Assembly: GCA_046292385.1 (NCBI GenBank)
Contig: JBKBRF010000001.1
Location: forward strand, 223,305 to 287,304
Length of the DNA stretch: 64,000 nucleotides
Direction of reading: 5' to 3'
Source: Armatimonadota bacterium
GTDB taxonomy: Bacteria > Armatimonadota > SYMT01
The position numbers and the translations under genes were made by a program. The notes under the pieces are model-generated. The model did no database searches, had not been told where the DNA came from, and saw only the letters and a list, made by a program, of their open reading frames with translations. Every line of letters begins with the position of its first letter. The first letter of the stretch is position 1. Of this stretch, positions 10,034-40,655 are shown in pieces.

Positions 10034-10155
10034 CCGGCGGGAGCCGGGCCGGAGGCGGAGCCCGCCTCCGGCATTCGCGCGCTTGTCGCCTGGTCCTACT
10101 TTTCACGGCGCCGCGTGTGCTCGGCTGCCGAGCCCTTGCCGAAGGGAGCATCGAT

Positions 10156-11401: not shown

Positions 11402-11496
11402 AGCCAGGGTAGCAGTTGCACTACCGGGGCGGCGCACTCCGCGCGATGCCGTCCCGTCCACTCTCCCCCGGCGCCGAGAGAGCAGGAAGCAGGGCG

Positions 11497-14372: not shown

Positions 14373-15122
14373 ATGAACGCCCGTGCCTTCGGGAGCCGCC
14401 GCCGCAGCGGTTTCACCCTGATCGAGCTGCTCACGGTCATCGCCATCATCGCTATCCTGGCCGCGCTCCTGTTCCCCGTCTTCGCCGGCATGGGCCGCAA
14501 GATGCGAGAGACGCAGTGTCAGAACAACCTGAAGGCGATCGTGCAGGCGATGAACGTCTATAAGGAAGACCACGGCGTCTATCCGGATGCCCTCTACGGG
14601 GTCGGTTACACCAATGGACTGGAGCTGCGCCTGGCGAAGCAGGTCAAGGATCCGGGCATCTTCACCTGCCCGGAGCATCCGCAGCAGTTCAAGCAGAGTG
14701 ACACGCTGGTGCCGGCGATCAATCCGATGACCGGCCAGCCGGCGACCGATCGCTACAACCGGCCGATGCTCTTCCCGCAGCGGAGCAGCTACGACATCCA
14801 GTACCGCCCGAACCAGGCGAGCGGCACGGCGATCCTGAACTACAACCTGAAGTGGACCGGTTGGGCGCAGAACCAGACCGGCGCGGGCGACCAGCCGCGT
14901 CAGCTCGCCTACAAGAACCCGCCGGACAACACGGTGGTGGCGATCTGTCTCAACCACGCCAAGCCCGGCGCGGCGGTGAACGGCGTTTTCCCGGTCGGCA
15001 AGGGGGAGATGGCGATCGTGGCGTTCCTGAACGGCCGCGTGCAGAAGATCCCGGCGGAGCAGGTCAACAACTGGACCGGCCAGGGCCAGCCGTATCCGTG
15101 GCTGGTGATGCCGAAGCCGTAG
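14373..15122 (+). CDS. Type IV prepilin, DUF1559-like (249 aa)
   Basis: RRRSG|FTLIELLTVIAIIAILAALLFPVF...CQNNLKAI..AM..Y..D; C-terminal AFLNGRV; GGAGG RBS. Confidence 0.85.
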   Translation: MNARAFGSRRRSGFTLIELLTVIAIIAILAALLFPVFAGMGRKMRETQCQNNLKAIVQAMNVYKEDHGVYPDALYGVGYTNGLELRLAKQVKDPGIFTCPEHPQQFKQSDTLVPAINPMTGQPATDRYNRPMLFPQRSSYDIQYRPNQASGTAILNYNLKWTGWAQNQTGAGDQPRQLAYKNPPDNTVVAICLNHAKPGAAVNGVFPVGKGEMAIVAFLNGRVQKIPAEQVNNWTGQGQPYPWLVMPKP

Positions 15123-15247
15123 GCCGCGTCATTCGGATCCCGGCGCCGGCCGCGCCGCCGGGCGGCGCAGCACCTCACGCTGGAGGGCCTCCCCAGTCCG
15201 GAAGGGCGTGCGTCAGAGAGAGTCCGCGTGTTAAGGACGGGTGTGTG

Positions 15248-17431
15248 ATGGCAGAACTCCGAAAGTCAACCGGTGAGAGGACCCCCTGGACGCTCCGCGG
15301 GGGCCGTCGCGGTACCTCGCTGGTCGAGATCCTGGTGGTGCTGGTGATCCTGATCGTCGGGATCTTCGCCGTCACGCGGCTCTTCCCGGAAGGGATGCTC
15401 AGCCTCGGCTACTCCGGCAACTTAACGCTGGCGAACGCGCTGGTGCAGAAGAACGAAGACTTCCACGCCAGCCACCGCACCAACGTGCCGGAAGGGATGG
15501 TCGGCATCGACCCGGACACCGGGCTGATCCGCACCCAGATCACGCCGGCCGACATCCGCAGCGAGCGGCCCTATCTGGACACGCCGGTGACCAGCGCCAC
15601 CGGTACGCCGCCGAACGACCCGCGCCACTCCGGCGTGAACCAGGTGCGCCGGGTCATCGGCGAGCGGCTGATGCTGCCGCCTCCCTCCCAGTTCCCGGAC
15701 CCGCGCCTGGGGCTCGGCTCGGAGAATGTCTGCCTCTACCGGCCGCTCTACACGCCGATCTACTCCCTGAACGCGATGCCCGGCAGCAGCCTGGGGGTCC
15801 AGGCCTACAGCGGCACGCCGTTCCGGCGGGTGGTGATCGCCAAGGAGCCGCAGACGGTGGAGGAGTGGCAGGCGTTCTACACGCTGCTCGATCCGTACAC
15901 CTACGCCGTCGACTACGACAACGCGAAGCTCTACTTCCTGGCGACCGGCTACGAGCGCCGCTTCAAGATCCGTGGCAACCTCCGCGCGCAGCTCCAGAAC
16001 GGGCGGTACCTGAGCACGGAGATGCACCCGAACAATACGGTGTACCTCCCTGCCGGCCGGGACGCCGACGACCCGACCGATCCGCGGGGGATCATCCAGC
16101 GGTTCGACCTGCGCGTCACGCAGCCGGGGTTCGAGCGCCTGCCGCTGCCGGGCGACCTGGTGGCGGACGACCAGGGCAATCCCGCCACGGTGGCGGAGGA
16201 GGGGATGCTCGATCCGGAGACCGAGTTCCTCTACCGGTACTTCACGCCGCTGCTGACGAACCAGCCGTTCAGCGCCACGATCGACTCCGACCCTTACCAG
16301 TTCAAGGTCTACGACCCGGTCTTCGGCCTCCTCGGCTTCAACCCCCGGGTGGCGTCGGTACCGCGGCACCAGGGCGGCGGCGCCCAGCTGGTAAAGGTCG
16401 ACTACGACGTGGACGACTGGCAGATCCTGCGCGAGGAGCTGGTGGTGCCGACCGAGCTCGTCAACCGCGACGAGCCGAATGCGCAGGCCCAGTTCCACAG
16501 CGTCAAGCTGGCGATCTCCGGGCTCAAGAAGATCGGCGACATGGAAGAGACGATCAACTTCGTCGCCAACAGCGCCTCCGACACCTTCGAGCACCAGGGC
16601 CTGGTCCGACACTACCCGCCGTCGCAGCGCACGGGCGCCCCCGCGCGGCCGGGAACGGGGGCCGGCTCCACCCTGCTGGGCGCGCAGAACCAGTCCGGCG
16701 TCGACCTGGTGCTGGTCGACCTGGAGACGGGGCTGCAGATCGACAGCCGCACGCTGCAGCGGCCCGGCACCAACCCGGACCCGAACGTGAGCAACCTGAA
16801 CGGCGAGATCGACTATGCCAACGGAGTGATCCACCTGCGGCCGACGGTGCAGCTCAGGCTGCCGTTCGCGCTCCAGGGCGGCAACGCCTCGCTGCAGGTG
16901 CCGGCCGGCGGTCGCCGCTTCCGGATCCACTACCGCAGCTCGAGCGACTTCGCCGTTGCGTCGATGAAGCCGTACTCCAACTACGGAACCTTCGGCTTCC
17001 ACCCGAATGACGCGCCGAACCGCCTGCCGACCTTCAAGGAATACCAGCCGTACCCGTACGGCTTCGTGCTCTTCTTCAATACCGACGCCGACAAGACAGT
17101 GGCGGTCGACTACCAGTGGACGCACCGGCTCTCCGGCGAGGTGCGGATGGAGGTGGGAGAGCTGCACCAGATCCAGTCGCCGACGGCCCTTTACCCGCCC
17201 GGCCCGCCGCCGAACAACTGCGGTGGCGGGAGGCCGCAGAGCTACTGGGTGCGGGTGCGGCACTCGGACCCGCAGGCGTGCGAGCCGAGCGATCCAAACT
17301 TCGATCCGGACGTGCTGCCGGGGAGTGTCCGGGTCATCGGCGTGCGCGGAGCCTCGTTCCACACCTGGGTGGAGTGGCGCGATCTGAACCGCTTCCGGCG
17401 GCTGCAGCGCTCCACCATCCTCGGCGGATAG
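15248..17431 (+). CDS. Giant PilV-like prepilin (727 aa)
   Basis: RRG|TSLVEILVVLVILIVGIFAV class III signal with Glu5; first of three tandem giant prepilins. Confidence 0.7.
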   Translation: MAELRKSTGERTPWTLRGGRRGTSLVEILVVLVILIVGIFAVTRLFPEGMLSLGYSGNLTLANALVQKNEDFHASHRTNVPEGMVGIDPDTGLIRTQITPADIRSERPYLDTPVTSATGTPPNDPRHSGVNQVRRVIGERLMLPPPSQFPDPRLGLGSENVCLYRPLYTPIYSLNAMPGSSLGVQAYSGTPFRRVVIAKEPQTVEEWQAFYTLLDPYTYAVDYDNAKLYFLATGYERRFKIRGNLRAQLQNGRYLSTEMHPNNTVYLPAGRDADDPTDPRGIIQRFDLRVTQPGFERLPLPGDLVADDQGNPATVAEEGMLDPETEFLYRYFTPLLTNQPFSATIDSDPYQFKVYDPVFGLLGFNPRVASVPRHQGGGAQLVKVDYDVDDWQILREELVVPTELVNRDEPNAQAQFHSVKLAISGLKKIGDMEETINFVANSASDTFEHQGLVRHYPPSQRTGAPARPGTGAGSTLLGAQNQSGVDLVLVDLETGLQIDSRTLQRPGTNPDPNVSNLNGEIDYANGVIHLRPTVQLRLPFALQGGNASLQVPAGGRRFRIHYRSSSDFAVASMKPYSNYGTFGFHPNDAPNRLPTFKEYQPYPYGFVLFFNTDADKTVAVDYQWTHRLSGEVRMEVGELHQIQSPTALYPPGPPPNNCGGGRPQSYWVRVRHSDPQACEPSDPNFDPDVLPGSVRVIGVRGASFHTWVEWRDLNRFRRLQRSTILGG

Positions 17432-17553
17432 CGGGCGCCGGGAACCGATGCGACGACTTGCAACGTGATTGGGTCTGCGGGATACCCCGCGAGTCCGCGG
17501 CGGCCAGGCATGGCCCGGGCGCCCGGCTCCGGCCCGAGAAGTAGGGGACGTTG

Positions 17554-19416
17554 ATGCGCGACAGAGAGCATACACTGGCACGACGGCGGCCGCGCGGCGC
17601 TGCTCGGCGGGGCTTCACGATCATCGAGATGATCGTGGTCATTGCCATCACCGCACTCCTGATGACGATCCTGTTCGTTCCGCTCTCCCGCACGCTCGAC
17701 CTGGTCTCGCGCGGCAACGCCCGCGTGACGAGTCAGGACAGCGTGCGGGCGGCGATGCGGACGGTGCGCCGGGACCTCTCCAACGCGATGCAGGTCTTCC
17801 CGCCGCGCCCCATTCACATCTGGGGCTACCGGGACTGGACCTACGACAACCGGAAAGACCGTCCGGAGCCGCTGCCCAACAGCCCTTCGGAGCGGTACCT
17901 GGTGGAGAACGGGGTCTTCGCCTTCCGTTTGCCGAAGCACCAGTACCACTGCCCGCGCTTCGATCACACCATCCTCCCCACGGAGGCGGATCCGAACCTG
18001 GCGCTCGACACCTGCCCGCGCCACCTCGGCTCTCCCATCGAGATGCGCCCGCTCTCGCCGCTGGAGCCGGACGATAAGATCGTCGCCTACTTCCTGGCGC
18101 TGAAAGATCCGACCGTGACAGACGGGCAGGGCCTCCCGCAGTACCGGAATATCGCGCTCTTCAGCAACGTCGCCACCAACACGCTGAACACCTACACGCT
18201 CTACCGGCTGGAGTTCGACCCCCGGCTGCCGCAGTTCGCCCGCTGGACCATCGACGCAGACGGAGATGGTCAGGTCGACGATCCGAATCCGAACTTCTTC
18301 TACGAGACCCAGAACGTGACGGGTCTGGTCGGGGGCCAGCAGGTGACCCTGCCGGCGTATCAGTGGTGGCGGGACGCGTCTCGCGTGGTAGTGAACCAGC
18401 AGCAGTCCGACATGGTGAAGTGGCTGGCGAGCGGAGCGAAGTGGCTGCCGCACCCGATTACCACCATGGGCCCGGCACCGGTCTCCGATGCCGACCTGCT
18501 GCCGAACCGGAACGTCGGCCTCTTCAACCAGGACGGCTCCACGCTGCCGGCGTCGATCCCCTCCGCGGAATACCTGGCCGAGTTCGGGCACTGGCTGGGG
18601 CTGGAGAATGACGGCCAGGGACTGATCCCGGCCACCTGGGTGATCAAGCCGGACGGTCAGACCGGGACCTATCTCCGCGGGCCTCGCATCCAGATCTTCG
18701 ACTTCAGCCTGGCTCCGGCGCAGCAGCTAGTCTTCGACTCTGCCGATGCCACGCGCCGCAACCGGCTGGTCTCCTATGACTCGATGACCGGGCGCGTCAC
18801 CTTCGCGATGCGGCGGTTCAACTACGGCACCAACGATCCGGTGCTGATGGAGCACTATTCGGCTCCGGCGCCGAGTGCCGCCAATCTCTACACGGTCGAC
18901 CTCACGCTGGACCAGGTCAGCGACCCGAACAACATGCCGAGCAGTTTCGGCGCCGCGAAGGTGTGGGAGGGGAACAATGCGCTGCGCCAGGGAACATCGC
19001 TGATCGTCCCCGGGTCAGAAGAGGTGCAGCTCACCTTCCAGCCGGCGAGCGGCCCGCGCGAGGTGGAGATACTGCGACGGGTGGGGTGGACCGGCCTCGG
19101 CAACGGGGTAGACCGGTACGTGGCGCAGGCAGACCTGGCGCCGGACGAGTACACCATCGACTACCGCACCGGCATCATCGGACTCGCCGACCGCGATCCC
19201 AACCGCTGGAGCGGGGTGGCCCCGGGCGGCCAGCGCCAGCTCCTGGTGAAGCACCGCTTCCAGACCAACCGGCCGGGCGACGTGGTGAAGGCGAGCTTCG
19301 TCACCCAGGAAGCGGCCCTGGCGAACCTGGGTCTGGTGGAGTTCACCCGCGCCAAGGGTGAGAAGCTGCCGTTCGAAGTCTCCGAGCGGATCGTTATCCG
19401 GAACCTCAAGCGATGA
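17554..19416 (+). CDS. Giant PilW-like prepilin (620 aa)
   Basis: RRG|FTIIEMIVVIAITALLMTIL...SQDSVRAAMRTVRRDLSNA (PilW/GspJ-like helix). Confidence 0.75.
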   Translation: MRDREHTLARRRPRGAARRGFTIIEMIVVIAITALLMTILFVPLSRTLDLVSRGNARVTSQDSVRAAMRTVRRDLSNAMQVFPPRPIHIWGYRDWTYDNRKDRPEPLPNSPSERYLVENGVFAFRLPKHQYHCPRFDHTILPTEADPNLALDTCPRHLGSPIEMRPLSPLEPDDKIVAYFLALKDPTVTDGQGLPQYRNIALFSNVATNTLNTYTLYRLEFDPRLPQFARWTIDADGDGQVDDPNPNFFYETQNVTGLVGGQQVTLPAYQWWRDASRVVVNQQQSDMVKWLASGAKWLPHPITTMGPAPVSDADLLPNRNVGLFNQDGSTLPASIPSAEYLAEFGHWLGLENDGQGLIPATWVIKPDGQTGTYLRGPRIQIFDFSLAPAQQLVFDSADATRRNRLVSYDSMTGRVTFAMRRFNYGTNDPVLMEHYSAPAPSAANLYTVDLTLDQVSDPNNMPSSFGAAKVWEGNNALRQGTSLIVPGSEEVQLTFQPASGPREVEILRRVGWTGLGNGVDRYVAQADLAPDEYTIDYRTGIIGLADRDPNRWSGVAPGGQRQLLVKHRFQTNRPGDVVKASFVTQEAALANLGLVEFTRAKGEKLPFEVSERIVIRNLKR

Positions 19417-22400
19417 TGAGCGCCATGCGAACTAGAGCCAGGACCGGGTGGGCGAGGGGCCGGCGCGGGCAGACGATCGTCGTGGCGATCGCCATCCTGT
19501 TTCTCCTCATCCTCGTCGGCTCGATCTTCATCACGACGGTGGTGCAGAACCTCCGCCGGGTTACTGCCCAGGGGGAGCGGAACGACGCGCTCACGCTGGC
19601 GCTCGCCGGCCTGCGCTACGCGGGACAGCAGTTTGCCGCCAGCCCCGCGGGGGCCGACTGGCGACCGACGCCGACCGAGGCACTGTGGCGCACCCCGGTG
19701 CCGCCGGCGACGATCTTTCGTGACCAGCTTCCCCCCAATACGCCGGGGGACCTGAACGGCGACCAGGTGCTCGACGCCAACGAGATCCGCCTGCTCGACC
19801 CGGACTACAAGTGGCTGAGCGACGACGGCACCTACCGCCGTCCCTTCGTTCGCGTTCCGACGGGCCGCGGCCGGTTCCTGGTGCGCGTGACTTACATTCC
19901 GCGCTACGAGGCGTCCGGTCCGAACGCCGTCGAGTTCGCGCAGAACTCCGGCCTGATCCACGTGGAAGCGGTGGGCCGCCCCGGCGAGCTCGATCCGAAC
20001 GACCCGACCTTCTACACCTCCGACCCGACCGGCAACACGCAGGGTGGAGAAGTGGTGGGGCCGTATCGCAAGGTCGACGCCTACGTGCCGATGGGCCTGG
20101 TGGACCAGCTCTGGTGGGTGACCAACCGCACCAGGGAGCGGGGCCCGGCGACCCTGGGCGTGCCCGGCTTCCGGGACGGCCTGGCGCGTGGGGTCGAGTT
20201 CCCGGCGGTGTGGGAGGGCGGCATCCGCAGCGATACCGATCTCCAGCTCCAGGGCCAGAACAACGTGCGGCTCTACCCGTCCCGCGGGGAGGGGGTCTTC
20301 GTGAAGGGCGAGCTCCGGCTTAGCCCCCGCGGCAATACCGCGCAGCCGCGCCCGCAGCTCGAGCTGCAGGTGCTGGAGGACAGCGGAGAGACAGCTGGGA
20401 CCGCCCCGGATGGAAATCCGATTATTCCGTCGGAGAACTTCGACGATAATCCGGGTAACGACTCGCTCATCATCCGGGTCGATGCGGACCCGCTGATCGC
20501 GAACAATGGTCTCGCCTCGGTCCTGCTCTACACCCCGGGCGGGAGCCAGCGGCGCGTGCTGCTGGACGAGCGGCACCTGCGGAGCGATCCGGAGCTGGCC
20601 GCGCGCAGCACCCGCATGCAGCCGCCGCCGGACCTGACCGCGGGCGACCCGACCACCGGGATGAACCGCTGGCTGCTCCTCACCCGGGAGACCGGCGGCA
20701 TGCTGAGCATTCCGCAGCAGGGCGAAGCGACGCGCCTGGTGCGGGCCGGCTGGTATGGCCTGGTCGATCAGAACCTGTCGCCGACGATCCGCGCCCAGGG
20801 GCTCTACCTCGATAACCACGGCGACATCCAGTATCCCGGCGACCGCTCCGCAGTGAAGGACGAGTGGCTGCGGCGCGGCAACTCCGACACCCGGAACCGC
20901 GGCTGGCTGGGCGACTACTACGTGCCGAGCGTGGAAGAGGGCGGCACCCTCCACCCGATCGCGGAGGTGGCGCTGGTCGACGTGCATTCGAACCCGAACG
21001 ACCCGAGCTCGCCGCGCGTGCCGAAGATCCGGATCACACGCTACGACCTGGATCAGCGGCACATGAACCTCCAGGGGGCCGTGGGCCGGCAGCGGTTGTT
21101 CTACCGCCACGACGGCACCCAGCTCGTTCCCGTCGGCTACACCCGCGAGTTCGACTATCCCTCCAACGGCGTCTTCTTCGCCGAGGGGAGCATCCGCCTC
21201 CGCGGGCGGGTGGGAACCGAGACCGACCCGAGGCAGCTCACCATCGTCTCCGGCGGCACCATCTATGTCGAAGGCAACATCGTCAAGCCGCACCGCGCCT
21301 CCTTCGTGGGGCTGCTGGCGCGCGACTACGTGACGCTCAACCCGACCGCCTTCACGCGGGTCCAGCCGGGCAGCGACATCCTGGTCGAGGCGGACACCTT
21401 CGACACGGACGGCCGCCCGGTGGGCTACCACTTCACGGTGCAGCAGGGGAGCGACCTCGACTTCTCCTTCCAGTCCGCCGAGCCGCTCGGCAGCGGCATG
21501 ATCCACGTGAAGCACTCCGCCGCTTACGAGGCGGACGGCTCCCAGACCGCCGTCACGCTCAACCTGCCGCGGCTGGCGCCGAACGCCGACCAGAATGGCT
21601 GGCCCGCGTGGAACACCGATCGGTACGACTTCGGCGCAAACCGTCCGCCGGGCGATCCGCCGGCGGGGCTGACGCCGTACACCGGCGTATCGCAGCTCTT
21701 CTACCTGTTCCGGAAGTTCTCGCCGGGTGAATTCCGCGACCAATCCGCGGAGGACCCCCAGAGCTACGCCGAGTCTAACTTCCAGACGCCGCTCGGCACG
21801 CAGACGCCGCGCTTCGAGCGCAAGACGTTCTTCCTGCCGCAGCTTGGCTCCGGCGGCGCCGTGCGGCCTGGAATGGACGCGACCTACCGGCTGGTGGTCG
21901 GCTCCCAGGACGACGGCTCCGGCAACCCGGTGACGCAGCCGAACGGGCAGCCCTACTGGCTTTCCCGGATCGCGGTGCTGCCGCAGGACCGGCCGCTGCC
22001 GATCAAGATCGAGGCGGTGATGTACGCGCAGAACGGCTCCTGGTTCGTGATCCCGCCGCCGTACTTCAACGACAACCCGACGGACACGCGGGCGGAGTTC
22101 GCTTCTACGGGTCGCCGCCCGATCGGCACCTTCCCGCGGAACACGGACCATTACCCGTTCTACAACGAGCCGCTGAACATCGAGGTGCAGATCAACGGGT
22201 CGATGACGGAGAACATGCCGGCCGCGCCGAGCGAGCAGGCCGCGTGGGTGAACCGGACCTGGATCCACGATCCGGGCTACGACCCGGGCGTCTTCCCGCT
22301 CCAGGGCCGCCCGCCGTTCTCCCCGCGGCTGCGCTACCGCTACGACTCCGATCTGAAGCGGATGGTCCGGGCCCGCATCCCGCGGCTCGGCCAGGAGTTC

Positions 22401-22586
22401 ATCGTGTGGACGGCGCCCACCGCGCCGCCGGTGAACGGAATGATGACGGTGGATCAGGTCATCGCCTTCGCCCGCGGCAACGATCCGAACACGAACCAGC
22501 CGATCAACAGCTACGTGGAGTTCCTGCCGGTGCTGCCGCGGATGCCCGCCGGCACGCTGGTCTACGAGGGCAATCCGCAGCAGTAA
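19413..22586 (+). CDS. Giant PilX/GspK-like prepilin (1057 aa)
   Basis: RRG|QTIVVAIAILFLLILVG lacks Glu5 (a PilX/GspK hallmark); ALTLALAGLRYA resembles the PilX N-terminal motif; ATGA overlap with the upstream gene. Confidence 0.7.
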   Translation: MMSAMRTRARTGWARGRRGQTIVVAIAILFLLILVGSIFITTVVQNLRRVTAQGERNDALTLALAGLRYAGQQFAASPAGADWRPTPTEALWRTPVPPATIFRDQLPPNTPGDLNGDQVLDANEIRLLDPDYKWLSDDGTYRRPFVRVPTGRGRFLVRVTYIPRYEASGPNAVEFAQNSGLIHVEAVGRPGELDPNDPTFYTSDPTGNTQGGEVVGPYRKVDAYVPMGLVDQLWWVTNRTRERGPATLGVPGFRDGLARGVEFPAVWEGGIRSDTDLQLQGQNNVRLYPSRGEGVFVKGELRLSPRGNTAQPRPQLELQVLEDSGETAGTAPDGNPIIPSENFDDNPGNDSLIIRVDADPLIANNGLASVLLYTPGGSQRRVLLDERHLRSDPELAARSTRMQPPPDLTAGDPTTGMNRWLLLTRETGGMLSIPQQGEATRLVRAGWYGLVDQNLSPTIRAQGLYLDNHGDIQYPGDRSAVKDEWLRRGNSDTRNRGWLGDYYVPSVEEGGTLHPIAEVALVDVHSNPNDPSSPRVPKIRITRYDLDQRHMNLQGAVGRQRLFYRHDGTQLVPVGYTREFDYPSNGVFFAEGSIRLRGRVGTETDPRQLTIVSGGTIYVEGNIVKPHRASFVGLLARDYVTLNPTAFTRVQPGSDILVEADTFDTDGRPVGYHFTVQQGSDLDFSFQSAEPLGSGMIHVKHSAAYEADGSQTAVTLNLPRLAPNADQNGWPAWNTDRYDFGANRPPGDPPAGLTPYTGVSQLFYLFRKFSPGEFRDQSAEDPQSYAESNFQTPLGTQTPRFERKTFFLPQLGSGGAVRPGMDATYRLVVGSQDDGSGNPVTQPNGQPYWLSRIAVLPQDRPLPIKIEAVMYAQNGSWFVIPPPYFNDNPTDTRAEFASTGRRPIGTFPRNTDHYPFYNEPLNIEVQINGSMTENMPAAPSEQAAWVNRTWIHDPGYDPGVFPLQGRPPFSPRLRYRYDSDLKRMVRARIPRLGQEFIVWTAPTAPPVNGMMTVDQVIAFARGNDPNTNQPINSYVEFLPVLPRMPAGTLVYEGNPQQ

Positions 22587-22617
22587 AGGCAGAAGTAAGA
22601 AGGCAGAAGGCAGAAGG
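22585..22617 (+). repeat. Left arm of a heptamer inverted repeat flanking the four-helix-bundle gene
   Basis: AAAGGCA GAAGTAA GAAGGCA GAAGGCA GAAGG, starting within the upstream TAA stop. Confidence 0.85.
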
Positions 22618-22637
22618 ACCGTGACGGAGACTGCTAC

Positions 22638-23006
22638 GTGATCCCAGGTGGCAGTGGTGAGCGCGATCTCCACGGACGTACAAAGCGGTATGCGCTGGAG
22701 ATTATCCGGCTTTGCGGGCGCTTGCCCAGGACCAGCGTTGCGCAGGTCCTGGGCAAGCAGCTACTTCGTTCGGGAACGAATCCCGGGGCGCAGTATCGGG
22801 AAGCGCAGCGGTCCCGGACTCCGGCGGAGTTCGTGAGCAAGCTGGGAGTGGCTCTTCAGGAATTGGAAGAGACCGGGTATTGGTTGGAGTTGTTGACGGA
22901 GAGCGGCGTAGTCCCGCCCGCCGAAACCGAGCGGCTTGTCACGGAGACACGTGAGCTGACCGCCATTTTCGTCACGATAGTCCGCAGAGCGAAGGCCCGC
23001 GACTGA
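22638..23006 (+). CDS. Four-helix-bundle protein (23S rRNA intervening-sequence protein / Avd-like family)
   Basis: DLHGRTKRYALEII..., QLLRSGTNPGAQYREAQRSRT.AEFVSKL.VALQELEETGYWLELL...ETRELTAIF; more AT-rich codons than its neighbours. Confidence 0.9.
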   Translation: MIPGGSGERDLHGRTKRYALEIIRLCGRLPRTSVAQVLGKQLLRSGTNPGAQYREAQRSRTPAEFVSKLGVALQELEETGYWLELLTESGVVPPAETERLVTETRELTAIFVTIVRRAKARD

Positions 23007-23018
23007 GCTGGTTCGGAT

Positions 23019-23051
23019 CTTTTGCCTTCTGCCTTTTGACTTTTGCCTTTT
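23019..23051 (+). repeat. Right arm of the heptamer inverted repeat flanking the four-helix-bundle gene
   Basis: CTTT TGCCTTC TGCCTTT TGACTTT TGCCTTT T; complementary to 22585-22617 with G:U pairs. Confidence 0.85.
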
Positions 23052-23065
23052 GGACGAGGTGTACG

Positions 23066-28375: not shown

Positions 28376-28460
28376 CCCCGCGTATACAAGGCGGTAGGTC
28401 CCGTTCGAAGCAGATGAGAGCGACCCCCCGTGGGTTTCGATACGAGAGTATGGTGAGACG

Positions 28461-31400
28461 ATGTTGAAGCGCAGTGCAGTCCTCTGGATGCTGCTGGCAA
28501 GCCTGGCGACGCTGCCGGTCTTTGCTCGAGACTTCCGCTCGTGGCGCACCGACGGAATCCATCTCCGTGGGAGCAGCGTGGGGCAGCAGTCGACTCACCA
28601 GGCGTTCAACCTGTATGAGAGCCTGCTGGATACCGGCGCGCTGGACCTCTCTCTCTACTGGAAAGGCGCCCTCCAGGAGCACGGCGGGATGACGACGGCC
28701 CCGTTTGGGGACGTGCCTCCCACCCAGGCGCTCCGCGACAACCGCGAGCAGGACGCGGAAGTCGACTGGAGCACCTGGGGGCCGGTCGCGAGCAAGGCGC
28801 CCGCGCCGCCGCGCCCGCTCTTTACCCCCAACGTGCCGCAGGCCTGGAGCCCGATGGTGCTCGACCTGGACCAGACCAACGGCGGCAACCCGGACCACGT
28901 GCTCGTCTCCGTCTCGTTCGAGCCGCTGCAGCCGGGAGGCTCCACCCGGGAGCAGGTGCTGAACCTCTACTATCCGCAGGTCGCCGCGGGCCTGCCGCAG
29001 AACGCCACGAGCGTGACCGCGGCGGACCGGGGCACGGTGCGGCCGCTCTGGGTGCGGGGCGGGAATACCAGCACCCCCGGCATGCTGATCCGGAACCTGG
29101 CGCCGGTGCGCGCCAGCCTGACCAACGCCGCGGACCCCGGCGTCGGCGTGGTGACGCACGCCCCGATCCTGGCGCGGGTGCCGGCCACCTTCGCTGCGGC
29201 CCAGAATCCCACTGATCCGAACCGGCAGCCGGAGATCCTGCCGGTCGTCTACCTGGTAGTGGGCACCGGAGAGAACAACGACTTCGCGCGGGTGATCTGC
29301 GTCTCGCTGAAGCGGCCGGACGCGTTCGCGAACGCCGCCGCCAATCCGATCCTGCCGAATCCGGCCAGCTACACCACCGGTACCACCCTCGAGGCGCCGA
29401 ACGGCGACTACTTCAACCCCACCAACGGGGACGGCAACGTCATGTGGTCGTACACCGTGCGCGCCCGCGACGGCGTCGCCGCGACCCCGGTGGCCGGCAT
29501 CTCGTTCGCGGACGTGGGCGACAGCACCCTGCCGGTGCCGCTCGTCTTCCTCACCACTGCGGACGGCCAGGTGATCGCGCTGAACGGCCGGGCGGTGGAC
29601 CAGCGCGACGTGAGCCAGGACGGCGATCCGGCGATCGACGTTCAGAACCCGACGCCCCGCTGGACCTGGGCGACTCCGTCCCGGAACGTCGGCGGCGTGC
29701 CGGAGCTTCCCGGCTTCTCCTACGGCATGGCCCCGGCCGTGGCGCGCGTGCCGCTGGATGAGATGTTCAGCGGCCAGGGCAACAGCAGCCAGACCGTCAC
29801 CAACGCGGCCGCGAAGCACAACGTCACCGAGTGGCCGCTCTACGTGGCGGACAAGCAGGGCACCTTCTGGGCGCTGGAGGCCCCCGGTCGCACCGACCGC
29901 AACGGCAGCGGCGCGGTAACCGGCCACAGCGCCCTGGTGCGCTGGAAGAACGAGGCCGCGGCGGATGCCGCCCGCCTCGACGCGCTGGGTCAGCGGGAGC
30001 GGTTCATCCTGCCGCCGGTGATCTACCAGGGCAACACGCCGATGCTCACCTCCGGCGGCGCCGTGGTGAACGGCAGCAGCGACGTCGGCTTCGACGACCA
30101 GGTGATCTTCGGCGCGGAGAAGGGGAACGTCTTCGCCCTCGACGCGATCGGCGAGCTGATGGTGGAGGGCGCGGCCAACGCGGACGACGGCCGCCCCACC
30201 GGAAATACCTCGTTCCGCTGGCAGTGGCCGCAGGACGATACCACGCTCACCAACGCCGATGATTTTACGAACACCGCGGAAGAGCCGCGGGTCTGGCCTC
30301 GAGAGCTTCGGGACCCGAACCTCTCGACCTCGCCAACTCCGGCCCGGCTTGCGCCGCCGGTGGACCCGGCCGACTACTTCACCCGCAGCCCTCTCGCCGT
30401 GGCGCTGGGCGGAAACTCCAATCCCGACGGGTCAAACCCCAACCTCGATCCGGGCGACGACGCCGTCTTCGTGCCGTACCTGCAGGAACGGGCCGCGGAT
30501 CCGTCCGTGCCGGCCGGGAATCGCGGCTTCTGGGAGTACGTGGGCAGCCTCAAGCCGTACGGCTTCGTGCAGGTGAGCCGTCCGGTCCTGGAGCTTCGTG
30601 AGATCGAGTTCACGCAGGGCGCGGACACCTTCAAGCTGCCGCTCAACACGCTGCGCGTGGGTACCGTCAAGGGGAACGGCCTGCCGAGCAACCTGGTGCA
30701 GACCACGCGGGATCTGAACAACAATCCCGGCGGAGCCAACCCGAACTACGATCCGGTCGGCCTTACGCCGGAAGATACGATCTACTTCGCCGATACCACC
30801 TGGTACGCCGACGAGACCGGAGAGTATGTCACGCTGCCGTTCGGCACGCAGGTGACGATCCGCTACCGCGCGCCGGCGTCACCCTCGGACCTGACGCCGC
30901 AGGACGTGACGGAGACGCTCGTCTTCCCCTCGTGCTATCGGGACATCTCGACCGACCCCGCGGTGATCACCCCGGCGCGCTCCCGCGCCAGCCTGAGCGA
31001 GGCTTACAACCGGCTGGAGCAGCGCAGGATTACCCGCTCCGGCGCTACCTTTACCGTTGAACATGAGAACCCGGCGCTGGTCCCCACCGGCGACTTCCTC
31101 ATCGCGCCGGACGGCGAGGGCGCGCGGCCGCCAGCGATGTTCGGCGCCGGTAGCTCCAGCACGGCGGGCACCCTTCTGGTGCCGTCGCTCTTCCGCGGTC
31201 GCGTCGTCGCCTTCGACCACCGGCTGCGGCTGCAGCGGATCATCCCGGGTTTCTATCATCCCGCGCTTCAGACCGGAGCACTACCGCAGGAGCCGCCGGC
31301 GTTCGGGCCGGCGACCGGGGACCCCGGCTCATTTGTCCAGACCGCACTTGGCACGCCGTTTGTCGAGGATATCCCTGCTTCACGCGTAGCCACGCAGCCG

Positions 31401-34400
31401 GGCTGCCCGGATATCGGCGGCTCGGTGACCGTGGTGGATGGCTGGATCTATCTCACCTACCGCAACGGCCACACGCGCTCCCTGGCAAATGTGAGCGGCG
31501 GAGGTGCCGGTGCCGGCGGCGGCACGGGCGCCAACCCTCCCCTGTGGGAAGGGCTCCCGGGACCGCCGAGCGGTGGTGGTAACCTGGTGCGCGCGCCGCT
31601 TTCCATCCGCATTCTCCGGAATAAGCCGCCGACCGATATCTCTACTTTCAACCCCGGGGCGAACGACTACCGGGACTCGGCCGAGCTGGATGCCTCCGTC
31701 CTTCTCGAGTGGGGAGAGACCCTCTACGCGGAGGTCTATTACGGCCCAGCTAACGAGCTGCCTCCGCTTGGAGCTCCGCCGGCGAGTCCTCACGCGGTGC
31801 CCCAGCCGGGAAGCCTGTATCTCGATCCACAGGTGCTGCAGCGCGAGGTGCAGGGGCAGATCCGCAGCAAGGGGGCGGTGCAGCAGCTCCCCGGCTCCAA
31901 CCGCGGCACGCGTCCCACGGTAGCAAACGGGCGCGTCATCGCGATCGTGCCGATCTTCGCGGGGGTGCCGTCCGGCACGAACCCCCTGACCCCGGGAACA
32001 CCGCTGCTCTGGGAGAAGACCTCGCCTGAATTCAAGTCGGAGTTGACCTACGAGTACCAGGTCACCCAGCCGGGTCTTCAGTGGCGGTGGCCCGGTCCGG
32101 ATACCGATAACGACGGACAGTACGATCCGGATCCCAAGAAGGTCCACTTCTGGGAGGTCGAGCCGGCGCAGAACGGCAATCCGTATCCCACGACGGCGGG
32201 CCCCGGCAACTGGGCCTGGGCGGACAGTCCGGCGACCACCGATGTGGTGGAAAACGAGTACGCGCCGCTGGTGTCGTACAACAACCCGATCGCCCTCTAC
32301 TACGATCCGGACCTCAACCCGGCCAGCAACGTGTTCGGAATGTGGGACGGCGGCACCGGGCGCAACGCCGTGGGCACCGAGGTGACCTACACCGATCGGC
32401 TGGCTCGAGGGCGGCGCAACGGCGACCTGTACGAGACCCCGTACGTGGACGGCTCCCGCTCCGGCTCCGGCCGGCCGGTGGTGCCGACGGTCGGCGTGGC
32501 GGTGGCGGGCGGCGAGGCGCGGCAGGTGCTCTTCGGCGAGCACGGCAAGAGCACCCCGCTCGACTCCACCGTCTATCCCGGCGCCTCCAAGCTGGGGGTA
32601 GCGGACCGCAGCCACCTGGCGCTGGCCGGCCGCTCGCTGCAGATTCGGGTGCAGCCGGCGCCGCTGACCAAGCTGGGCGCGGGCGCCCACTTCGGCACCC
32701 TGAACAACGCGGCGCTGCGGGATACCAACCCCAACCGGCCCAAGGGCTCCTTCGACCAGAACCTGAACTACTGGGACGACGGCGCGCACGGGATGTACTC
32801 CAGCCTGCCGGAGTCTCAGCTGGTGGTGAGCAAGGTCGGCACCGCGCTGAACCTGACCAGCGCACCGGTGCAGGTCTCCGGGCGCAACCCGGACGGCTCG
32901 CTGCCCAACTTCAACCAGTTCGAGCAGCTCGCGGTGCAGGTCGATATCCCGCGGTTCGCCGCGGACGACGTGTACGGAACCCGGTGGCGCTTTACCGGCC
33001 AGAATGGGGTTAACCCGACCGATCCGCGCGCCAACTTCAACCCGTACTACCCCAGCACCGTGGCGGGACCGAACGGGCAGGCCGGCCGCTCCTACTGGGA
33101 CCGCGCGGAGCAGTTCAGCAAGGGCCCGGTGCCAACGAACAACACCAGTGGGCCGCTCCCGGCCGCGAACGAGGACCGGTCCTCCACTTACGTGCCGAGC
33201 GCTGCCTACGACCCGGCCGGGGCGCAGACGCCCCAGCAGATCGTCAGCCAGACCGACTACTACGACGACCGCATGAAGCGCGTCGTGTTGTTCAACGACG
33301 CCAACAACAACGGCCAGCTCGACCTGAGCCCGAACTTCCGGGAAGCGTACCGCACCTTCGCGGTCCAGGTGGTGGTCAAGCCGGAGCTGCGGGTGGAAGC
33401 CCAGCAGCAGGGGGTGGACCTGGGCGCCGTGTGGCACGGCAAGAAGGGCCCCGGCATGACGCCCGACACTCTACCCAACCTGTGGGAGTGGCAGCGGATG
33501 GAGTCGTGGCGGCTCGCCGGCAATCCCTCCGAGCAGGCCCTGGGCACCTTCTACAAGCAGTACTGGCGGCCGTTCAACCTGGTGAACACCGGCAACGTGA
33601 ACATGCCGTTCATCAAGCCGGAGCTGGTTTTCCAGCTCCCGAACCAGCCGGCGAAGTACATCGCCCTGGCGGGCGAGGGCAACGACCCGTGGCGGGCGCT
33701 GCCGTTGGTGAACCCGCTGGCCACCAACGACCTCCGCGATCCGTTCCAGATCTTCCTGCGGACCTCGCTGGACGACATGATGACCGACGGCGATCCGTAC
33801 GGGTTCAATCCTCGTTCCGGCGCCTGGTTGCAGAAGGCTCCCGTCGGTGCCGCGAACCCCGGATCGGTGGTTTACGTCCACGACGCGTTCCCGAACCAGC
33901 CGAACCTCAATCCGGAGGCTCGTGACCCGAGTAACGGCGGTCGCCCGCGGGATACCTGGCTGGCGCTGAACCTTCCGCTCGGCACCCCGCTGGGAACCTA
34001 CTCCGGCTCGGTCCGGTTCTACAACGACCGCGTCGTTTCGTTCCAGGAGTCGCCCAACCAGGGCGTCGGCTTCCAGTATCTTGGCGCCGACACGCGCAAC
34101 GGTATCCTGAACCGCGATACCACCGGCTCCACCCTGGAAGCGGCCACCGATCCGCCGGTGCGGCTCAAGGTGAAGGTGATCGAGAACGTGGCGCAGGGCC
34201 GGCAGCGGCCCGCCGCCACCGCGCAGGACCAGGACCGCCGCGTCGCCCCGACCGGGGTGATCGACTTCGACCAGAACGGCGCGCTGCGCGGGCTGCTGGT
34301 CGGCTACGCGACCAACTTCCTGGGTCTCTACACCCCGGCCGGCGCGCCGCTGCCGCAGCGGGAGCCGAACCGGTTCGACCTCTTCGCCACCCGCGTCCTG

Positions 34401-36524
34401 TTCGACAGCCAGCGGCGACTCTTCGAGTTCGACGAGCTGCCGATCGACACGGTGCCGTGGCGGAATCCGTTCAATAACGCGGTCGGCTTCGGGGTGGTCT
34501 CGGGCACGCCGCCCGCCAGCAGCCTGCCGCAGGCGAGCAAGCCGACGATGCTCCCGGGCCTATCCGGCGGCGGGCTGGTGGCGTGGGTGCAGCGGATTTC
34601 CCGCGGCTCCGGCAACGACGAGTACCGGATCTACTACACCCACACGCTGCAGCAGACCACGCCGCTGGAGCTGACCCCCCGCGGAACCCCGCTCGATCCG
34701 CGCGTGCCGCGGCAGGGCGTCCAGCTCACCCAGAGCTACGACGCGAACGGGAATCCATACTGGATGGCATTCTACGCCGTGGGACCCGGCACGCGGCAGA
34801 ACCTGGTGATGAGCTTCTCGCTCGACCCGTCGCAGGCCGATTCCTGGTCCGCGGAGGCTCCGGTAGCGACCTCAAAGTCGCTCTCCACCGTCCGCGACCC
34901 GTTCGCGTCGATTACGGACCAGGCGGTGCGCCGCCCGGCGCCGCTCCCGCAGACCGATCCGAACATGCCGCCGTTCCTGGCGACCGAGCTGGGGCTGCTG
35001 CCGCAGATGGCGTGGATCTCCTACGCCGGCACCAGCCAGAGCCGGGGCCTGACCGACGTCTACATGACCCGCTACCGCACCGCGGCGTTAGCGCAGGAAG
35101 GCCAGCGGAACGCCGCCAACCAGCAGAGCGGCGCGTATGACTACGCGCGGGTCGGTTACCCGCGGGTGGCCGCGGACGTGTCGGTCGGCGGGCAGGTCTA
35201 CTCGGTCGGCGGGGAGGTGCTGCAGGCCAACACCACCCGCACCACCTACAGCTCGTCCTGGGTCGACTGGCTGAGCCACGCTCACACGCCGGTGCAGGTC
35301 TACCTGGGCCGCGGCGATCTACCCGCGGGGAGCCTGGGGAGCCGCCTGCAGCCGCTGCCGCTGATCGACGTCAACGCGCAGGGGCAGGCCGGCACCGGTG
35401 GGGAGGTGGAGTTCCGGTTCTCCAACCAGCTCCAGGCCGCCGTGCCGCGTCTCCAGAACGAGCGGATCCTGATCGACCGCGCCGCCGGAATCGTCCGGTT
35501 CAGCCGGGACACGCGCACCCTGTCGCTGCTCCTCGGCCAGGCCGGCGTGACCCCGCCGTTCCAGACCAACTCTCCGGATCCGGTGGTCAGCGCGGACTTC
35601 ACCCCCGCTACCCTGCGGATCACCCGCGGCGACGTCTCCGCCAGCGACCCGGTGATCGTGCCGGTGCTCACGCAGCGCGAGAACGAGCCGATCATGGACG
35701 CGAGCTGGTACCGGCAGACGATCGACACGCAGGTGAACGGGGCCGGCCAGACCAAGGCCCAGGCCGGCATTCCGGTGCCTGGCCGCGCGGACCGCATCTG
35801 GGTCTTCTGGCGGCGCGCCACCGGTGCCGTCTCCGGCGGGACCTCGGCGTTCTACAAGATCCTGCGGCCGGGCGTGCGGGTCAGCAACGGCTCCATCCTC
35901 GGGGTACAGCCGTCCGAGCTGATCGTCTCGGTGAACGGAACGACCCTGTTCCCGGAAGAGGTGAATCCGCAGAATGGCCAGATCTACCTGCCCCACAGCT
36001 TCGAGGGACAGGAGGTCGAGGTGCGGTACCGGCTGGCGAACGGCACGACGGTGATCGAGCGCCACCGCGTGAGCTGGCTCGACGAGAGCGGGGAGCGTCC
36101 GGTTCCGATGGAGACCTCGATCAATGAGGGCAGCCTCCATGCCTTCGCGACCTTCGAGGCCCAGCTCATGAGCCCGCTGGGTCAGCCGCACACCGCGCTG
36201 GCGCCGGTGGCGAAGCTGGACCGCGCGTGGGTCTTCTGGAGCAGCACCCGATTCGGCGGCGACATCGTCTACGCCACGCTGGCGCCGCGAATCGGAATGG
36301 AGACCAACATCGCCGGAAGCGCCGTGCTCAACTCGATCACGCCGTCGGCACTGTCCCGCCTCTCGGCTAACGCGGCGCGGCAGCAGGAGCTCGCGGTGGC
36401 CGAGCACGAGCGGCGCCAGCCGTTCACCGTCCCGGTCCCGCACACGCCCGGCCCGCTTCCGCACCCCAGTACCCCGCTAGGGAAGCGGGCCGCGGCGGCT
36501 GCCTCCCAGGCAGGCAGGCGATAA
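28461..36524 (+). CDS. Giant secreted protein (2687 aa) with PQQ-like repeats; candidate pilus-associated adhesin/scaffold
   Basis: Signal peptide MLKRSAVLWMLLASLATLPVFA; VFLTTADGQVIAL, LYVADKQGTFWAL, VIFGAEKGNVFAL; uninterrupted 8-kb ORF. Confidence 0.65.
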   Translation: MLKRSAVLWMLLASLATLPVFARDFRSWRTDGIHLRGSSVGQQSTHQAFNLYESLLDTGALDLSLYWKGALQEHGGMTTAPFGDVPPTQALRDNREQDAEVDWSTWGPVASKAPAPPRPLFTPNVPQAWSPMVLDLDQTNGGNPDHVLVSVSFEPLQPGGSTREQVLNLYYPQVAAGLPQNATSVTAADRGTVRPLWVRGGNTSTPGMLIRNLAPVRASLTNAADPGVGVVTHAPILARVPATFAAAQNPTDPNRQPEILPVVYLVVGTGENNDFARVICVSLKRPDAFANAAANPILPNPASYTTGTTLEAPNGDYFNPTNGDGNVMWSYTVRARDGVAATPVAGISFADVGDSTLPVPLVFLTTADGQVIALNGRAVDQRDVSQDGDPAIDVQNPTPRWTWATPSRNVGGVPELPGFSYGMAPAVARVPLDEMFSGQGNSSQTVTNAAAKHNVTEWPLYVADKQGTFWALEAPGRTDRNGSGAVTGHSALVRWKNEAAADAARLDALGQRERFILPPVIYQGNTPMLTSGGAVVNGSSDVGFDDQVIFGAEKGNVFALDAIGELMVEGAANADDGRPTGNTSFRWQWPQDDTTLTNADDFTNTAEEPRVWPRELRDPNLSTSPTPARLAPPVDPADYFTRSPLAVALGGNSNPDGSNPNLDPGDDAVFVPYLQERAADPSVPAGNRGFWEYVGSLKPYGFVQVSRPVLELREIEFTQGADTFKLPLNTLRVGTVKGNGLPSNLVQTTRDLNNNPGGANPNYDPVGLTPEDTIYFADTTWYADETGEYVTLPFGTQVTIRYRAPASPSDLTPQDVTETLVFPSCYRDISTDPAVITPARSRASLSEAYNRLEQRRITRSGATFTVEHENPALVPTGDFLIAPDGEGARPPAMFGAGSSSTAGTLLVPSLFRGRVVAFDHRLRLQRIIPGFYHPALQTGALPQEPPAFGPATGDPGSFVQTALGTPFVEDIPASRVATQPGCPDIGGSVTVVDGWIYLTYRNGHTRSLANVSGGGAGAGGGTGANPPLWEGLPGPPSGGGNLVRAPLSIRILRNKPPTDISTFNPGANDYRDSAELDASVLLEWGETLYAEVYYGPANELPPLGAPPASPHAVPQPGSLYLDPQVLQREVQGQIRSKGAVQQLPGSNRGTRPTVANGRVIAIVPIFAGVPSGTNPLTPGTPLLWEKTSPEFKSELTYEYQVTQPGLQWRWPGPDTDNDGQYDPDPKKVHFWEVEPAQNGNPYPTTAGPGNWAWADSPATTDVVENEYAPLVSYNNPIALYYDPDLNPASNVFGMWDGGTGRNAVGTEVTYTDRLARGRRNGDLYETPYVDGSRSGSGRPVVPTVGVAVAGGEARQVLFGEHGKSTPLDSTVYPGASKLGVADRSHLALAGRSLQIRVQPAPLTKLGAGAHFGTLNNAALRDTNPNRPKGSFDQNLNYWDDGAHGMYSSLPESQLVVSKVGTALNLTSAPVQVSGRNPDGSLPNFNQFEQLAVQVDIPRFAADDVYGTRWRFTGQNGVNPTDPRANFNPYYPSTVAGPNGQAGRSYWDRAEQFSKGPVPTNNTSGPLPAANEDRSSTYVPSAAYDPAGAQTPQQIVSQTDYYDDRMKRVVLFNDANNNGQLDLSPNFREAYRTFAVQVVVKPELRVEAQQQGVDLGAVWHGKKGPGMTPDTLPNLWEWQRMESWRLAGNPSEQALGTFYKQYWRPFNLVNTGNVNMPFIKPELVFQLPNQPAKYIALAGEGNDPWRALPLVNPLATNDLRDPFQIFLRTSLDDMMTDGDPYGFNPRSGAWLQKAPVGAANPGSVVYVHDAFPNQPNLNPEARDPSNGGRPRDTWLALNLPLGTPLGTYSGSVRFYNDRVVSFQESPNQGVGFQYLGADTRNGILNRDTTGSTLEAATDPPVRLKVKVIENVAQGRQRPAATAQDQDRRVAPTGVIDFDQNGALRGLLVGYATNFLGLYTPAGAPLPQREPNRFDLFATRVLFDSQRRLFEFDELPIDTVPWRNPFNNAVGFGVVSGTPPASSLPQASKPTMLPGLSGGGLVAWVQRISRGSGNDEYRIYYTHTLQQTTPLELTPRGTPLDPRVPRQGVQLTQSYDANGNPYWMAFYAVGPGTRQNLVMSFSLDPSQADSWSAEAPVATSKSLSTVRDPFASITDQAVRRPAPLPQTDPNMPPFLATELGLLPQMAWISYAGTSQSRGLTDVYMTRYRTAALAQEGQRNAANQQSGAYDYARVGYPRVAADVSVGGQVYSVGGEVLQANTTRTTYSSSWVDWLSHAHTPVQVYLGRGDLPAGSLGSRLQPLPLIDVNAQGQAGTGGEVEFRFSNQLQAAVPRLQNERILIDRAAGIVRFSRDTRTLSLLLGQAGVTPPFQTNSPDPVVSADFTPATLRITRGDVSASDPVIVPVLTQRENEPIMDASWYRQTIDTQVNGAGQTKAQAGIPVPGRADRIWVFWRRATGAVSGGTSAFYKILRPGVRVSNGSILGVQPSELIVSVNGTTLFPEEVNPQNGQIYLPHSFEGQEVEVRYRLANGTTVIERHRVSWLDESGERPVPMETSINEGSLHAFATFEAQLMSPLGQPHTALAPVAKLDRAWVFWSSTRFGGDIVYATLAPRIGMETNIAGSAVLNSITPSALSRLSANAARQQELAVAEHERRQPFTVPVPHTPGPLPHPSTPLGKRAAAAASQAGRR

Positions 36525-36528: not shown

Positions 36529-36571
36529 CACTTCTATGGGGGCCGGGGAGGAACCGGCTCCCATAGAAGTG
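36529..36571. terminator. 18-bp hairpin ending the giant-protein operon
   Basis: CACTTCTATGGGGGCCGG-N7-CCGGCTCCCATAGAAGTG with one G:U, immediately after the stop. Confidence 0.65.
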
Positions 36572-36579
36572 AACTTTCA

Positions 36580-36609
36580 TTGACACCCGGCTCAGGCGTT
36601 TGCTAGCAT
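36580..36609 (+). promoter_or_regulatory. Housekeeping sigma-70 promoter for the pilM operon
   Basis: TTGACA at 36580-36585, 18-bp spacer, extended -10 TGcTAGCAT at 36601-36609. Confidence 0.7.
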
Positions 36610-38316: not shown

Positions 38317-38324
38317 GTATTCTG

Positions 38325-39449: not shown

Positions 39450-39477
39450 TCGACGCCGGAGCGCTTTCAGTAATTCA

Positions 39478-39503
39478 CCACCTGCCGTTTCCACGGCAGG
39501 TGG
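39478..39503 (+). terminator. Hairpin after pilN
   Basis: CCACCTGCCGT-TTCC-ACGGCAGGTGG, perfect 11-bp stem; no U-tract. Confidence 0.45.
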
Positions 39504-39566
39504 ATCAACGCCGTCCGGGGCGGCAATTCCCGCGGCCCGATTTTAGAAGTCTAAAGGTGAGTCTCG

Positions 39567-40493: not shown

Positions 40494-40655
40494 AGACGAT
40501 GAATGGTGTGGGCCGCCGAGTCCGGAGCGACTTCCCGGCGGCCCCCGCGCCCTGAACACGTGGTCCCGCAGGTTTATCTCCCCAGCGGTGCTATTGGCCG
40601 ACGGTTCGGCAAATGGCCTCCGATACGACCCATACCGGGTTGGGAGCAGATTTAG

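Follow-up and report, generated by a model that had tools for sequence, protein, structure and literature searches.

The window analysed here, a stretch of 64,000 nucleotides from an Armatimonadota bacterium (GTDB SYMT01; GenBank assembly GCA_046292385.1, contig JBKBRF010000001.1, positions 223,305 to 287,304), holds within a pilus locus four prepilin genes, which we named P1-P4, and two genes for giant exported proteins, named G1 and G2. This cassette is real and nearly phylum-wide; it enlarges a known pilus-tip design and has yet to be characterised. Our preferred reading, to which we give a probability of about 0.55, is that it belongs to the core type IVa pilus locus of the Armatimonadota and forms an enlarged priming and tip module. 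We did not find a description of a cap pilin that is apparently self-complete and occurs alongside two giant exported proteins outside the PilY1 family; a literature search that mostly did not cover subscription papers returned no paper describing the P1-P4/G1/G2 cassette, and the available part of the Fimbriimonas genome paper reports fimbriae, pil genes and 79 pulG-like genes without mention of the cassette genes (PMC4072686). The six genes are as follows (aa, amino acids).

14373..15122, + strand: P1, 249 aa
15248..17431, + strand: P2, 727 aa
17554..19416, + strand: P3, 620 aa
19413..22586, + strand: P4, 1057 aa
23066..28375, + strand: G1, 1769 aa
28461..36524, + strand: G2, 2687 aa

These coordinates and sizes confirm the six open reading frames of an earlier reading of the DNA (the original prediction), and together they encode 7109 aa (772.9 kDa, ~773 kDa). 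That reading had the giants following the pilins; the order stood, with the correction that a 122-aa gene lies between P4 and G1. The GC content at third codon positions (GC3) of P1-P4, G1 and G2 is 0.88-0.94. The five long frames (P2, P3, P4, G1 and G2) all exceed 516 codons, the longest stop-free frame among 100 shuffles of the region, and are thus not due to chance.

Pfam and NCBIfam models confirmed the predicted placement of the cassette between pilBTCD and the run from pilM to the secretin gene. The retraction ATPase PilT (TIGR01420, 511 bits, cut-off 319) bears out the proposal of a retractile type IVa locus rather than a type II secretion system (T2SS). P2, P3, P4, G1, G2 and PilD each occur in single copy in the source genome, where PilD, with one phmmer match, is the only prepilin peptidase found. 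The same genome encodes at least 8 PilB/GspE-type ATPases and at least 6 secretins, and a motif scan detected 56 prepilin-like genes, 31 of them with an H-X-DG-like motif; two PilA-like prepilins of 111-112 aa are encoded on contig C24. From the single-copy state of these six genes, set against the many ATPases, secretins and prepilins, we infer that the window contains the core type IVa pilus locus of the Armatimonadota.

P4 and its partner pilins

In type IVa pili, FimU-PilV-PilW-PilX prime the fibre and remain at its tip (PMC7541494; here and below, the cited papers are used for those parts of their text that were available). The last strand of the PilX/K pilin sheet is supplied either in trans by the PilY1 tail or in cis by PilK itself, as in GspK, Thermus and CpaL (PMC13533445), and systems with the cis strand are described, in the available text, as having no separate tip adhesin (PMC13533445, PMC13711793). 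The cassette resembles the FimU-PilV-PilW-PilX-PilY1 set (PilH-I-J-K-PilC) in its gene order and in a fourth pilin without Glu5 (PMC7541494, PMC13533445, PMC13711793), and also in a last slot filled by exported beta-propeller proteins and in a PilT-bearing machine.

The N-terminus of P4 reads G|QTIVV, without Glu5, and the Gln is invariant in 32 rows. None of the 32 P4 family members matched any Pfam family, PilX_N included, at E<=0.01, and a sequence search of solved structures gave no match for P4. The pilin nature of P4 rests on a structure model, which we computed with AlphaFold2 for the mature protein from a 72-row alignment (predicted local distance difference test, pLDDT, 90.1; predicted template modelling score 0.91). 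The model begins with an N-terminal helix of 57 residues, and its best fold match is Thermus ComZ (6QVI; Z 12.2, root mean square deviation 4.3, 261 aligned residues, 12% identity), with residues 143-1031 of the model aligned to residues 38-513 of the 518 aligned-chain residues of ComZ. The next matches are ice-binding solenoids (Z 11.1-11.4, residues 207-965), and residues 629-840 match jelly-rolls of the carbohydrate-binding module (CBM) type CBM6/35 at Z ~8. The following parts of P4 were placed on the DNA.

about 20088-22364, + strand: beta-solenoid (P4 model)
about 21354-21989, + strand: inserted CBM6/35-like jelly-roll (P4 model)
about 22563-22571, + strand: conserved C-terminal strand (P4 model and alignment)

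Because the match runs to the end of ComZ, the model has a strand at residues 1032-1034 and the terminal motif is present in 141 of 150 homologue rows, the model suggests that P4 completes its own pilin sheet in cis with its last beta-strand. Like ComZ, which occurs with PilA1-3, P4 is predicted to have a pilin fold broken by an ice-binding-protein-like beta-solenoid, a C-terminal strand that returns to the pilin part, no Glu5, and the last position in the run of minor pilins (PMC6561018). Unlike ComZ, it is about twice as long, carries the CBM-like domain and other inserts, has partners of 600-700 aa and is followed by two giants. There is a comparable likeness to the cyanobacterial set of PilX-EPS/HpsA with FimT-PilW-PilV, namely four core minor pilins in a phylum without canonical PilY1 and a PilX in which a solenoid separates the last two strands and to which extra domains are grafted; companion propeller giants are not described in the available text on that set (PMC13759059), and in the Armatimonadota the PilV- and PilW-slot pilins are much enlarged as well. 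Large solenoid-capped PilX/K pilins are therefore known, from Thermus (ComZ; PMC6561018) and from cyanobacteria (PMC13759059), and the proposal of a new apparatus based on type IV pili was not upheld.

The Verru_Chthon cassette resembles ours as a pilin cassette with a large member. This largest member, protein A (TIGR02600, a model of 1296 positions), which occurs with proteins B-D, we take to be a PilX/K-like pilin. We considered P4 as a Verru_Chthon A protein and excluded this, as a direct scan gave no match of P4 to TIGR02600 at E<=0.1. Across genomes, TIGR02600 exceeded its cut-off in 0 of 41, a count to be read with the control genomes, which were unmatched as well.

The three pilins ahead of P4 have class III leaders with Glu5, and the Glu is invariant in the P2 and P3 alignments. 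P1 is DUF1559-like (PF07963, 33.9 bits, above its cut-off; PF07596, 24 bits) and falls in the FimU/H slot; because about 50 similar prepilins are encoded in the source genome (53 phmmer matches, P1 included), it is probably not the major pilin. P2, in the PilV/I slot, has the leader G|TSLVE and a weak match to the PilV model TIGR02523 (E 0.062). P3, in the PilW/J slot, has the leader G|FTIIE, exceeds the PF07963 cut-off and carries an insert of ~350 aa at about residues 230-590; it matches TIGR02599 over the N-terminal helix only (29 bits, cut-off 256), and its ESM Atlas matches, at 0.94, are to two clusters in which Armatimonadota are commonest. A sequence search of solved structures matched P2 and P3 to pilin N-termini only. 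As a check by prepilin models, PF07963 thus recognised P1, P3 (25 of 25 family members) and 26 of 29 members of the P2 family, and it failed, at E<=0.01, for the P2 of the window, as PilX_N did for the P4 family. The predicted slots (pilin, PilV-, PilW- and PilX-like) are supported by the leaders, the gene order and the ComZ match of P4, and of the outcomes that the original prediction named as refuting it none came about overall, although the PilX_N check failed.

By analogy with these systems, P1-P4 very probably form a priming complex whose cap, P4, would license itself. Since ComZ binds DNA (PMC6561018), we asked how far the module could be mainly a DNA-uptake tip like Thermus ComZ-PilA2. 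We regard this as improbable: the top fold match of P4 and its near-universal retention, which fits a housekeeping role, speak for it, but P4, G1 and G2 are acidic (isoelectric points 5.8, 5.9 and 5.4), P4, with its CBM-like insert, is closer to the adhesive, enlarged PilX-EPS class than to the compact PilX-Com class (PMC13759059), and a Pfam scan of the window, the only part of the genome searched for them, identified no com genes.

Three side observations concern these pilins. A second, weak match to the P4 profile (E 5.8e-5) lies at positions 169110-170855 of contig C2 of the source genome, between a secretin gene and PilC/PilB homologues. In family f5 the P4 proteins are longer, at 1299-1584 aa, and one relative (G025) has two nearby copies; in families f5, f9, f14 and f20 an extra P1-like pilin is encoded between P2 and P3.

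The giant exported proteins G1 and G2

G1 (189 kDa) combines a DUF4159-like N-terminal domain with PQQ/BamB-type and NHL-type propeller repeats. A Pfam scan of 24 G1 members found DUF4159 in 13, PQQ_2 in 6 and NHL in 3; the G1 profile matches propeller structures, with the BamB type closest to its propeller, and the best ESM Atlas score (0.84) is to PQQ propellers, which we treat as a lead only. A DxDxDG-type, calcium-binding-like loop is present in 25 of 49 G1 sequences; this motif is common in propellers. G2 (289 kDa) has a variable N-terminal part with PQQ-type propellers and a conserved C-terminal part. Among 18 G2-slot proteins of relatives scanned with Pfam, two have Golvesin_C and two DUF11 (one of this pair with NEW3 too), and in all 4 of the 18 have CBM-like or immunoglobulin (Ig)-like N-terminal domains. 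By sequence, the C-terminal half of G2 matched no solved structure better than E 0.56; modelling placed a propeller there.

about 34179-36296, + strand: six-bladed propeller of G2 with inserted domains (AlphaFold2, residues 1628-2632, pLDDT 84.3)

Residues 280-985 of this model match six-bladed propellers of the sialidase, arabinanase, PknD, TolB and lectin types (Z 12-14, 8-13% identity).

By eye and hydropathy, both proteins appear to carry signal peptides and to be exported; the hydropathy peak of the signal segment is 1.91 in G1 and below the 1.6 threshold in G2. A lipobox was found in 0 of 49 G1 and 2 of 37 G2 sequences, and hydropathy indicated no C-terminal membrane segment in either protein. 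PilY1 proteins are defined by a C-terminal propeller (PMC13190605), and their tail for beta-strand addition has the form W-R/K-E/Q-hydrophobic (PMC13711793). The PilY1 propeller PF05567 was not found in 24 G1 members, in 18 G2-slot relatives or in the G2 of the window, the tail was absent from all 49 G1 and 37 G2 sequences, and the PilY1 C-terminal domain was not among the matches listed for the G2 model. A genome-wide search for PF05567 gave 0 of 41, with the positive controls also unmatched, so that absence from these genomes is not shown. On their sequences, G1 and G2 are thus multi-propeller proteins without membrane anchors and not PilY1 members, and their proposed role as PilY1 equivalents was not borne out. 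They share with PilY1 a variable N-terminal part on a conserved C-terminal part, in the case of G2; unlike PilY1, they are two different giants and not one, and the terminal propeller of G2, which its own C-terminal strand closes, has its matches among six-bladed folds. In contrast to PilY1-licensed tips, P4 appears, from its model, to supply the licensing strand itself.

We also considered whether G1 and G2 could be a periplasmic scaffold or chaperone cage of the BamB/TolB type that folds, holds or gates an oversized tip under the secretin. The G1 propeller is closest in sequence to the BamB type, TolB is among the fold matches of G2 (Z 12.6), and the bulk of the two proteins contrasts with a pore of ~60 Å (PMC6561018) in a secretin whose length is not unusual (6 of 7 relatives have 557-609 aa). 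Propeller folds are promiscuous, however, with Z values tied across many families, and the variable CBM-like and Ig-like N-terminal domains of G2 fit an exposed role; we consider a periplasmic scaffold quite unlikely.

Three further candidates were rejected. Paralogy of G1 and G2 is unsupported (best probability 4.8%). A common small 'DxxxGxI' module of P2, P3, G1 and G2 was motif-seeded and partly circular and is a lead only: among profile pairs, P2/P3 scored best, at a probability of 92%, the other pairs fell below 70%, and no cross-family hidden Markov model match was found in G1 or G2. A 2450-aa protein of the relative G024, taken at first as G2, did not pass when profiles left out its own family and is a G1 homologue; it is one row of one alignment and one of the proteins in the 18-protein Pfam scan, and was dropped from later counts.

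Distribution in the phylum and the proposed tip module

A P4 profile built from 31 of the phylum's genomes matched 119 of 121 Armatimonadota genomes at E<=1e-25, mostly in single copy, so that almost all of a phylum with hardly any work on its surface biology has P4. At E<=0.001 the profile matches 1207 representatives, which carry no taxonomy. Single-protein searches found P4 in 40, G1 in 29 and G2 in 10 of 41 genomes, and they undercount the giants relative to profiles, as profiles of the N-terminal part of G1 and of the C-terminal part of G2 each matched 33 of the 41; some of the profile misses are fragmented assemblies. In leave-own-family-out profiles, 24 of 24 G1 and 20 of 21 G2-slot proteins passed, the exception being the long G1. 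Counted from the first possible start, and therefore sometimes too long, the families span 503-800 aa (P2), 508-780 aa (P3), 741-1584 aa (P4), 1342-1872 aa (G1, with one relative at 2450 aa) and 1376-3590 aa (G2).

The predicted conservation of the giant genes beside pil genes was found as well. Among 30 related loci, the order P2-P3-P4 occurs in 28, G1 lies directly 3' of P4 in 25, and pilC and pilD are directly upstream of the cassette in 21. G2 directly follows G1 in 21 of the 25 loci with G1 in this position (two cut by contig ends, one weak, 42 bits), and pilM directly follows G2 in 10 of the 19 loci with a complete G2.

Families f5 and f9 (five genomes, 93-98% complete) had neither G1 nor G2 in the profile search. 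In their four genomes with P3 beside P4, P3 is only 245-401 aa long and covers only positions 8-202 of the 578 in the profile; the P3 insert is thus missing from the lineages without G1 and G2, which suggests a link between the insert and the giants. These lineages offer a natural minimal version for comparison.

From these data we propose the following mechanism. As in established type IVa pilus biology, PilD would cleave the leaders of P1-P4. P4, without Glu5, would stand on top, with its own C-terminal strand closing the pilin sheet as in GspK and ComZ; P2-P3 would recognise it and the fibre would start, to be extended by PilB and retracted by PilT, with a small major pilin encoded elsewhere as its subunit. 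On weaker grounds, G1 and G2 may be exported by Sec, attach to the minor pilins at their extra domains (the P3 insert being the best candidate) instead of through beta-strand addition, and travel outwards as a string of domains that would bind surfaces or polysaccharides. They could not dock in the manner of PilY1, because the PilY1 domain and tail are absent. The original prediction that a putative single tip assembly of roughly 7000 residues would be too bulky for an ordinary secretin raises a fair concern, but chains of domains could thread the secretin in turn, because ComZ at ~60 Å is similar to the pore (PMC6561018) and Myxococcus xanthus PilY1.3 (~160 kDa) is proposed to be present as separated domains at the tip (PMC7541494). 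We see about an even chance that G1, G2 or both sit on the extended pilus tip, displayed for adhesion to surfaces or glycans. If the giants do ride the tip, they test the folded-protein capacity of a secretin and reveal a new docking mode.

Several points weigh against this proposal. The systems described with a cis strand have no separate tip adhesin, so that the available text of the literature gives no account of how G1 or G2 would dock. Two genomes have G2 on another contig than G1, and one gave no G2 match. On the P4 tree, f5 and f9 form one side of one branch (support 95/88), and because this is a single change, the co-distribution of the P3 insert with G1 and G2 counts as one observation. 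The PilV and PilW labels of P2 and P3 rest on gene order and N-termini. The cis strand of P4 was deduced from alignment ranges and DSSP rather than from coordinates, the Z of ~8 for its CBM-like region is close to the noise level of the tool and a fold is no proof of function, and Foldseek used by itself on P4 gave weak matches (best E 2.7e-4), with ComZ not among the matches listed.

Some of these points would suit another role for the giants, in which the filament primed by P1-P4 is short and piston-like and pushes G1 and G2, as dedicated cargo, through the secretin for a surface layer or matrix, comparable to T2SS substrates and TcpF. A cis-strand cap such as that of P4 is known from the T2SS pilin GspK (PMC13533445), G1 and G2 lack a PilY1 tail and, nearly always, a lipobox, 2 genomes have G2 apart from G1, and the G2 propeller resembles sialidase, arabinanase and lectin folds. 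Yet the locus includes PilT and PilM, the genome has, for secretion, at least 5 further secretins and seven further PilB/GspE-type ATPases, and G1 keeps its place right behind P4 in 25 of 30 loci, a pattern seen more typically with structural partners; we therefore judge a cargo role to be unlikely.

The tip reading, even so, can be pushed further: a tip of ~0.77 MDa, in which a self-licensing ComZ-type cap is combined with two non-PilY1 propeller giants held by the insert of the PilW-slot pilin, for the capture of polysaccharides or particles, is a tentative and somewhat doubtful picture. If true, it would represent a third loading mode besides beta-strand addition in trans and a cis cap by itself, would need sequential threading, extracellular assembly or a wider secretin, and would be a phylum-defining device. 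The locus breaks the recently described either/or pattern of the licensing strand, as an apparently self-complete PilK-type P4 stands beside two giant exported proteins.

Flanking genes and other observations

The genes and sites around the cassette are listed below.

8258..10033, + strand: PilB-type assembly ATPase, 591 aa, MshEN and T2SSE domains (PF00437, PF05157)
9700..11388, + strand: PilT retraction ATPase, open frame (TIGR01420 over frame residues 184-525)
11416..12774, + strand: PilC platform protein (PF00482 twice)
12796..14145, + strand: PilD prepilin peptidase (PF06750, PF01478)
22638..23006, + strand: four-helix-bundle gene, 122 aa (PF05635, TIGR02436)
36529..36609, + strand: terminator-like hairpin (36529-36571) and sigma70-like promoter (36580-36609), consensus matches only
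36748..44613, + strand: pilM, pilN-like, PilP-like, PilO-like, STN-only protein and secretin (PF11104, PF07660, PF00263, PF03958)
41798-42646, + strand: STN-only protein, directly 5' of the secretin gene, with a signal peptide, one STN domain and a tail rich in Gly and Met
42790-44613, + strand: secretin

The PilB-type ATPase scores below the equivalog cut-offs for PilB and GspE alike (TIGR02538, 613 bits, cut-off 676), and the real start of PilT is probably ~450-500 bases inside its open frame. The hairpin and the promoter-like site stand between G2 and pilM. PilM is well supported (TIGR01175, 247 bits, cut-off 133) and carries an acidic insert of ~170 aa; the three genes in the PilN/P/O slots have no Pfam match and NCBIfam matches of just E 0.035-0.098, the PilP-like and PilO-like labels denoting position only. 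Long low-complexity stretches rich in Gly, Met and Pro occur in the PilN-, PilP- and PilO-slot proteins and in the secretin (38325-44613). The STN-only protein is possibly a separate N-domain of the secretin or an accessory ring, and a gene like it also stands ahead of the secretin slot in the relatives G005, G013, G015, G018, G019 and G028.

The four-helix-bundle gene between P4 and G1, which is 23S rRNA IVP-like, has a GC3 of 0.72, lower than that of its neighbours, and two paralogues elsewhere in the source genome. It is flanked by inverted imperfect 7-base repeats (ggcagaa-type on the left, ttttgcc-type on the right; 22585-23055) and was not detected at the P4-G1 position in the 30 related loci. 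It looks like a small mobile cassette and is probably a passenger.

Contigs of one RNA run, of ~91-97% identity, cover pieces of pilB, pilT, pilC, P4 and G1, and two runs contained just 6-9% of the sequence words; as these contigs come from relatives and there was no silent control, they are not evidence of transcription.

The pil locus is bracketed by aroE (7248-8162) upstream and aroB (45356-46444) downstream, as in many relatives, and beyond aroB come a PASTA kinase gene, rpe and riboflavin genes. Further along the window, at 59089-61683, lies a gene for an M36 (fungalysin) metallopeptidase of 864 aa with an FTP propeptide and a dockerin-like domain.

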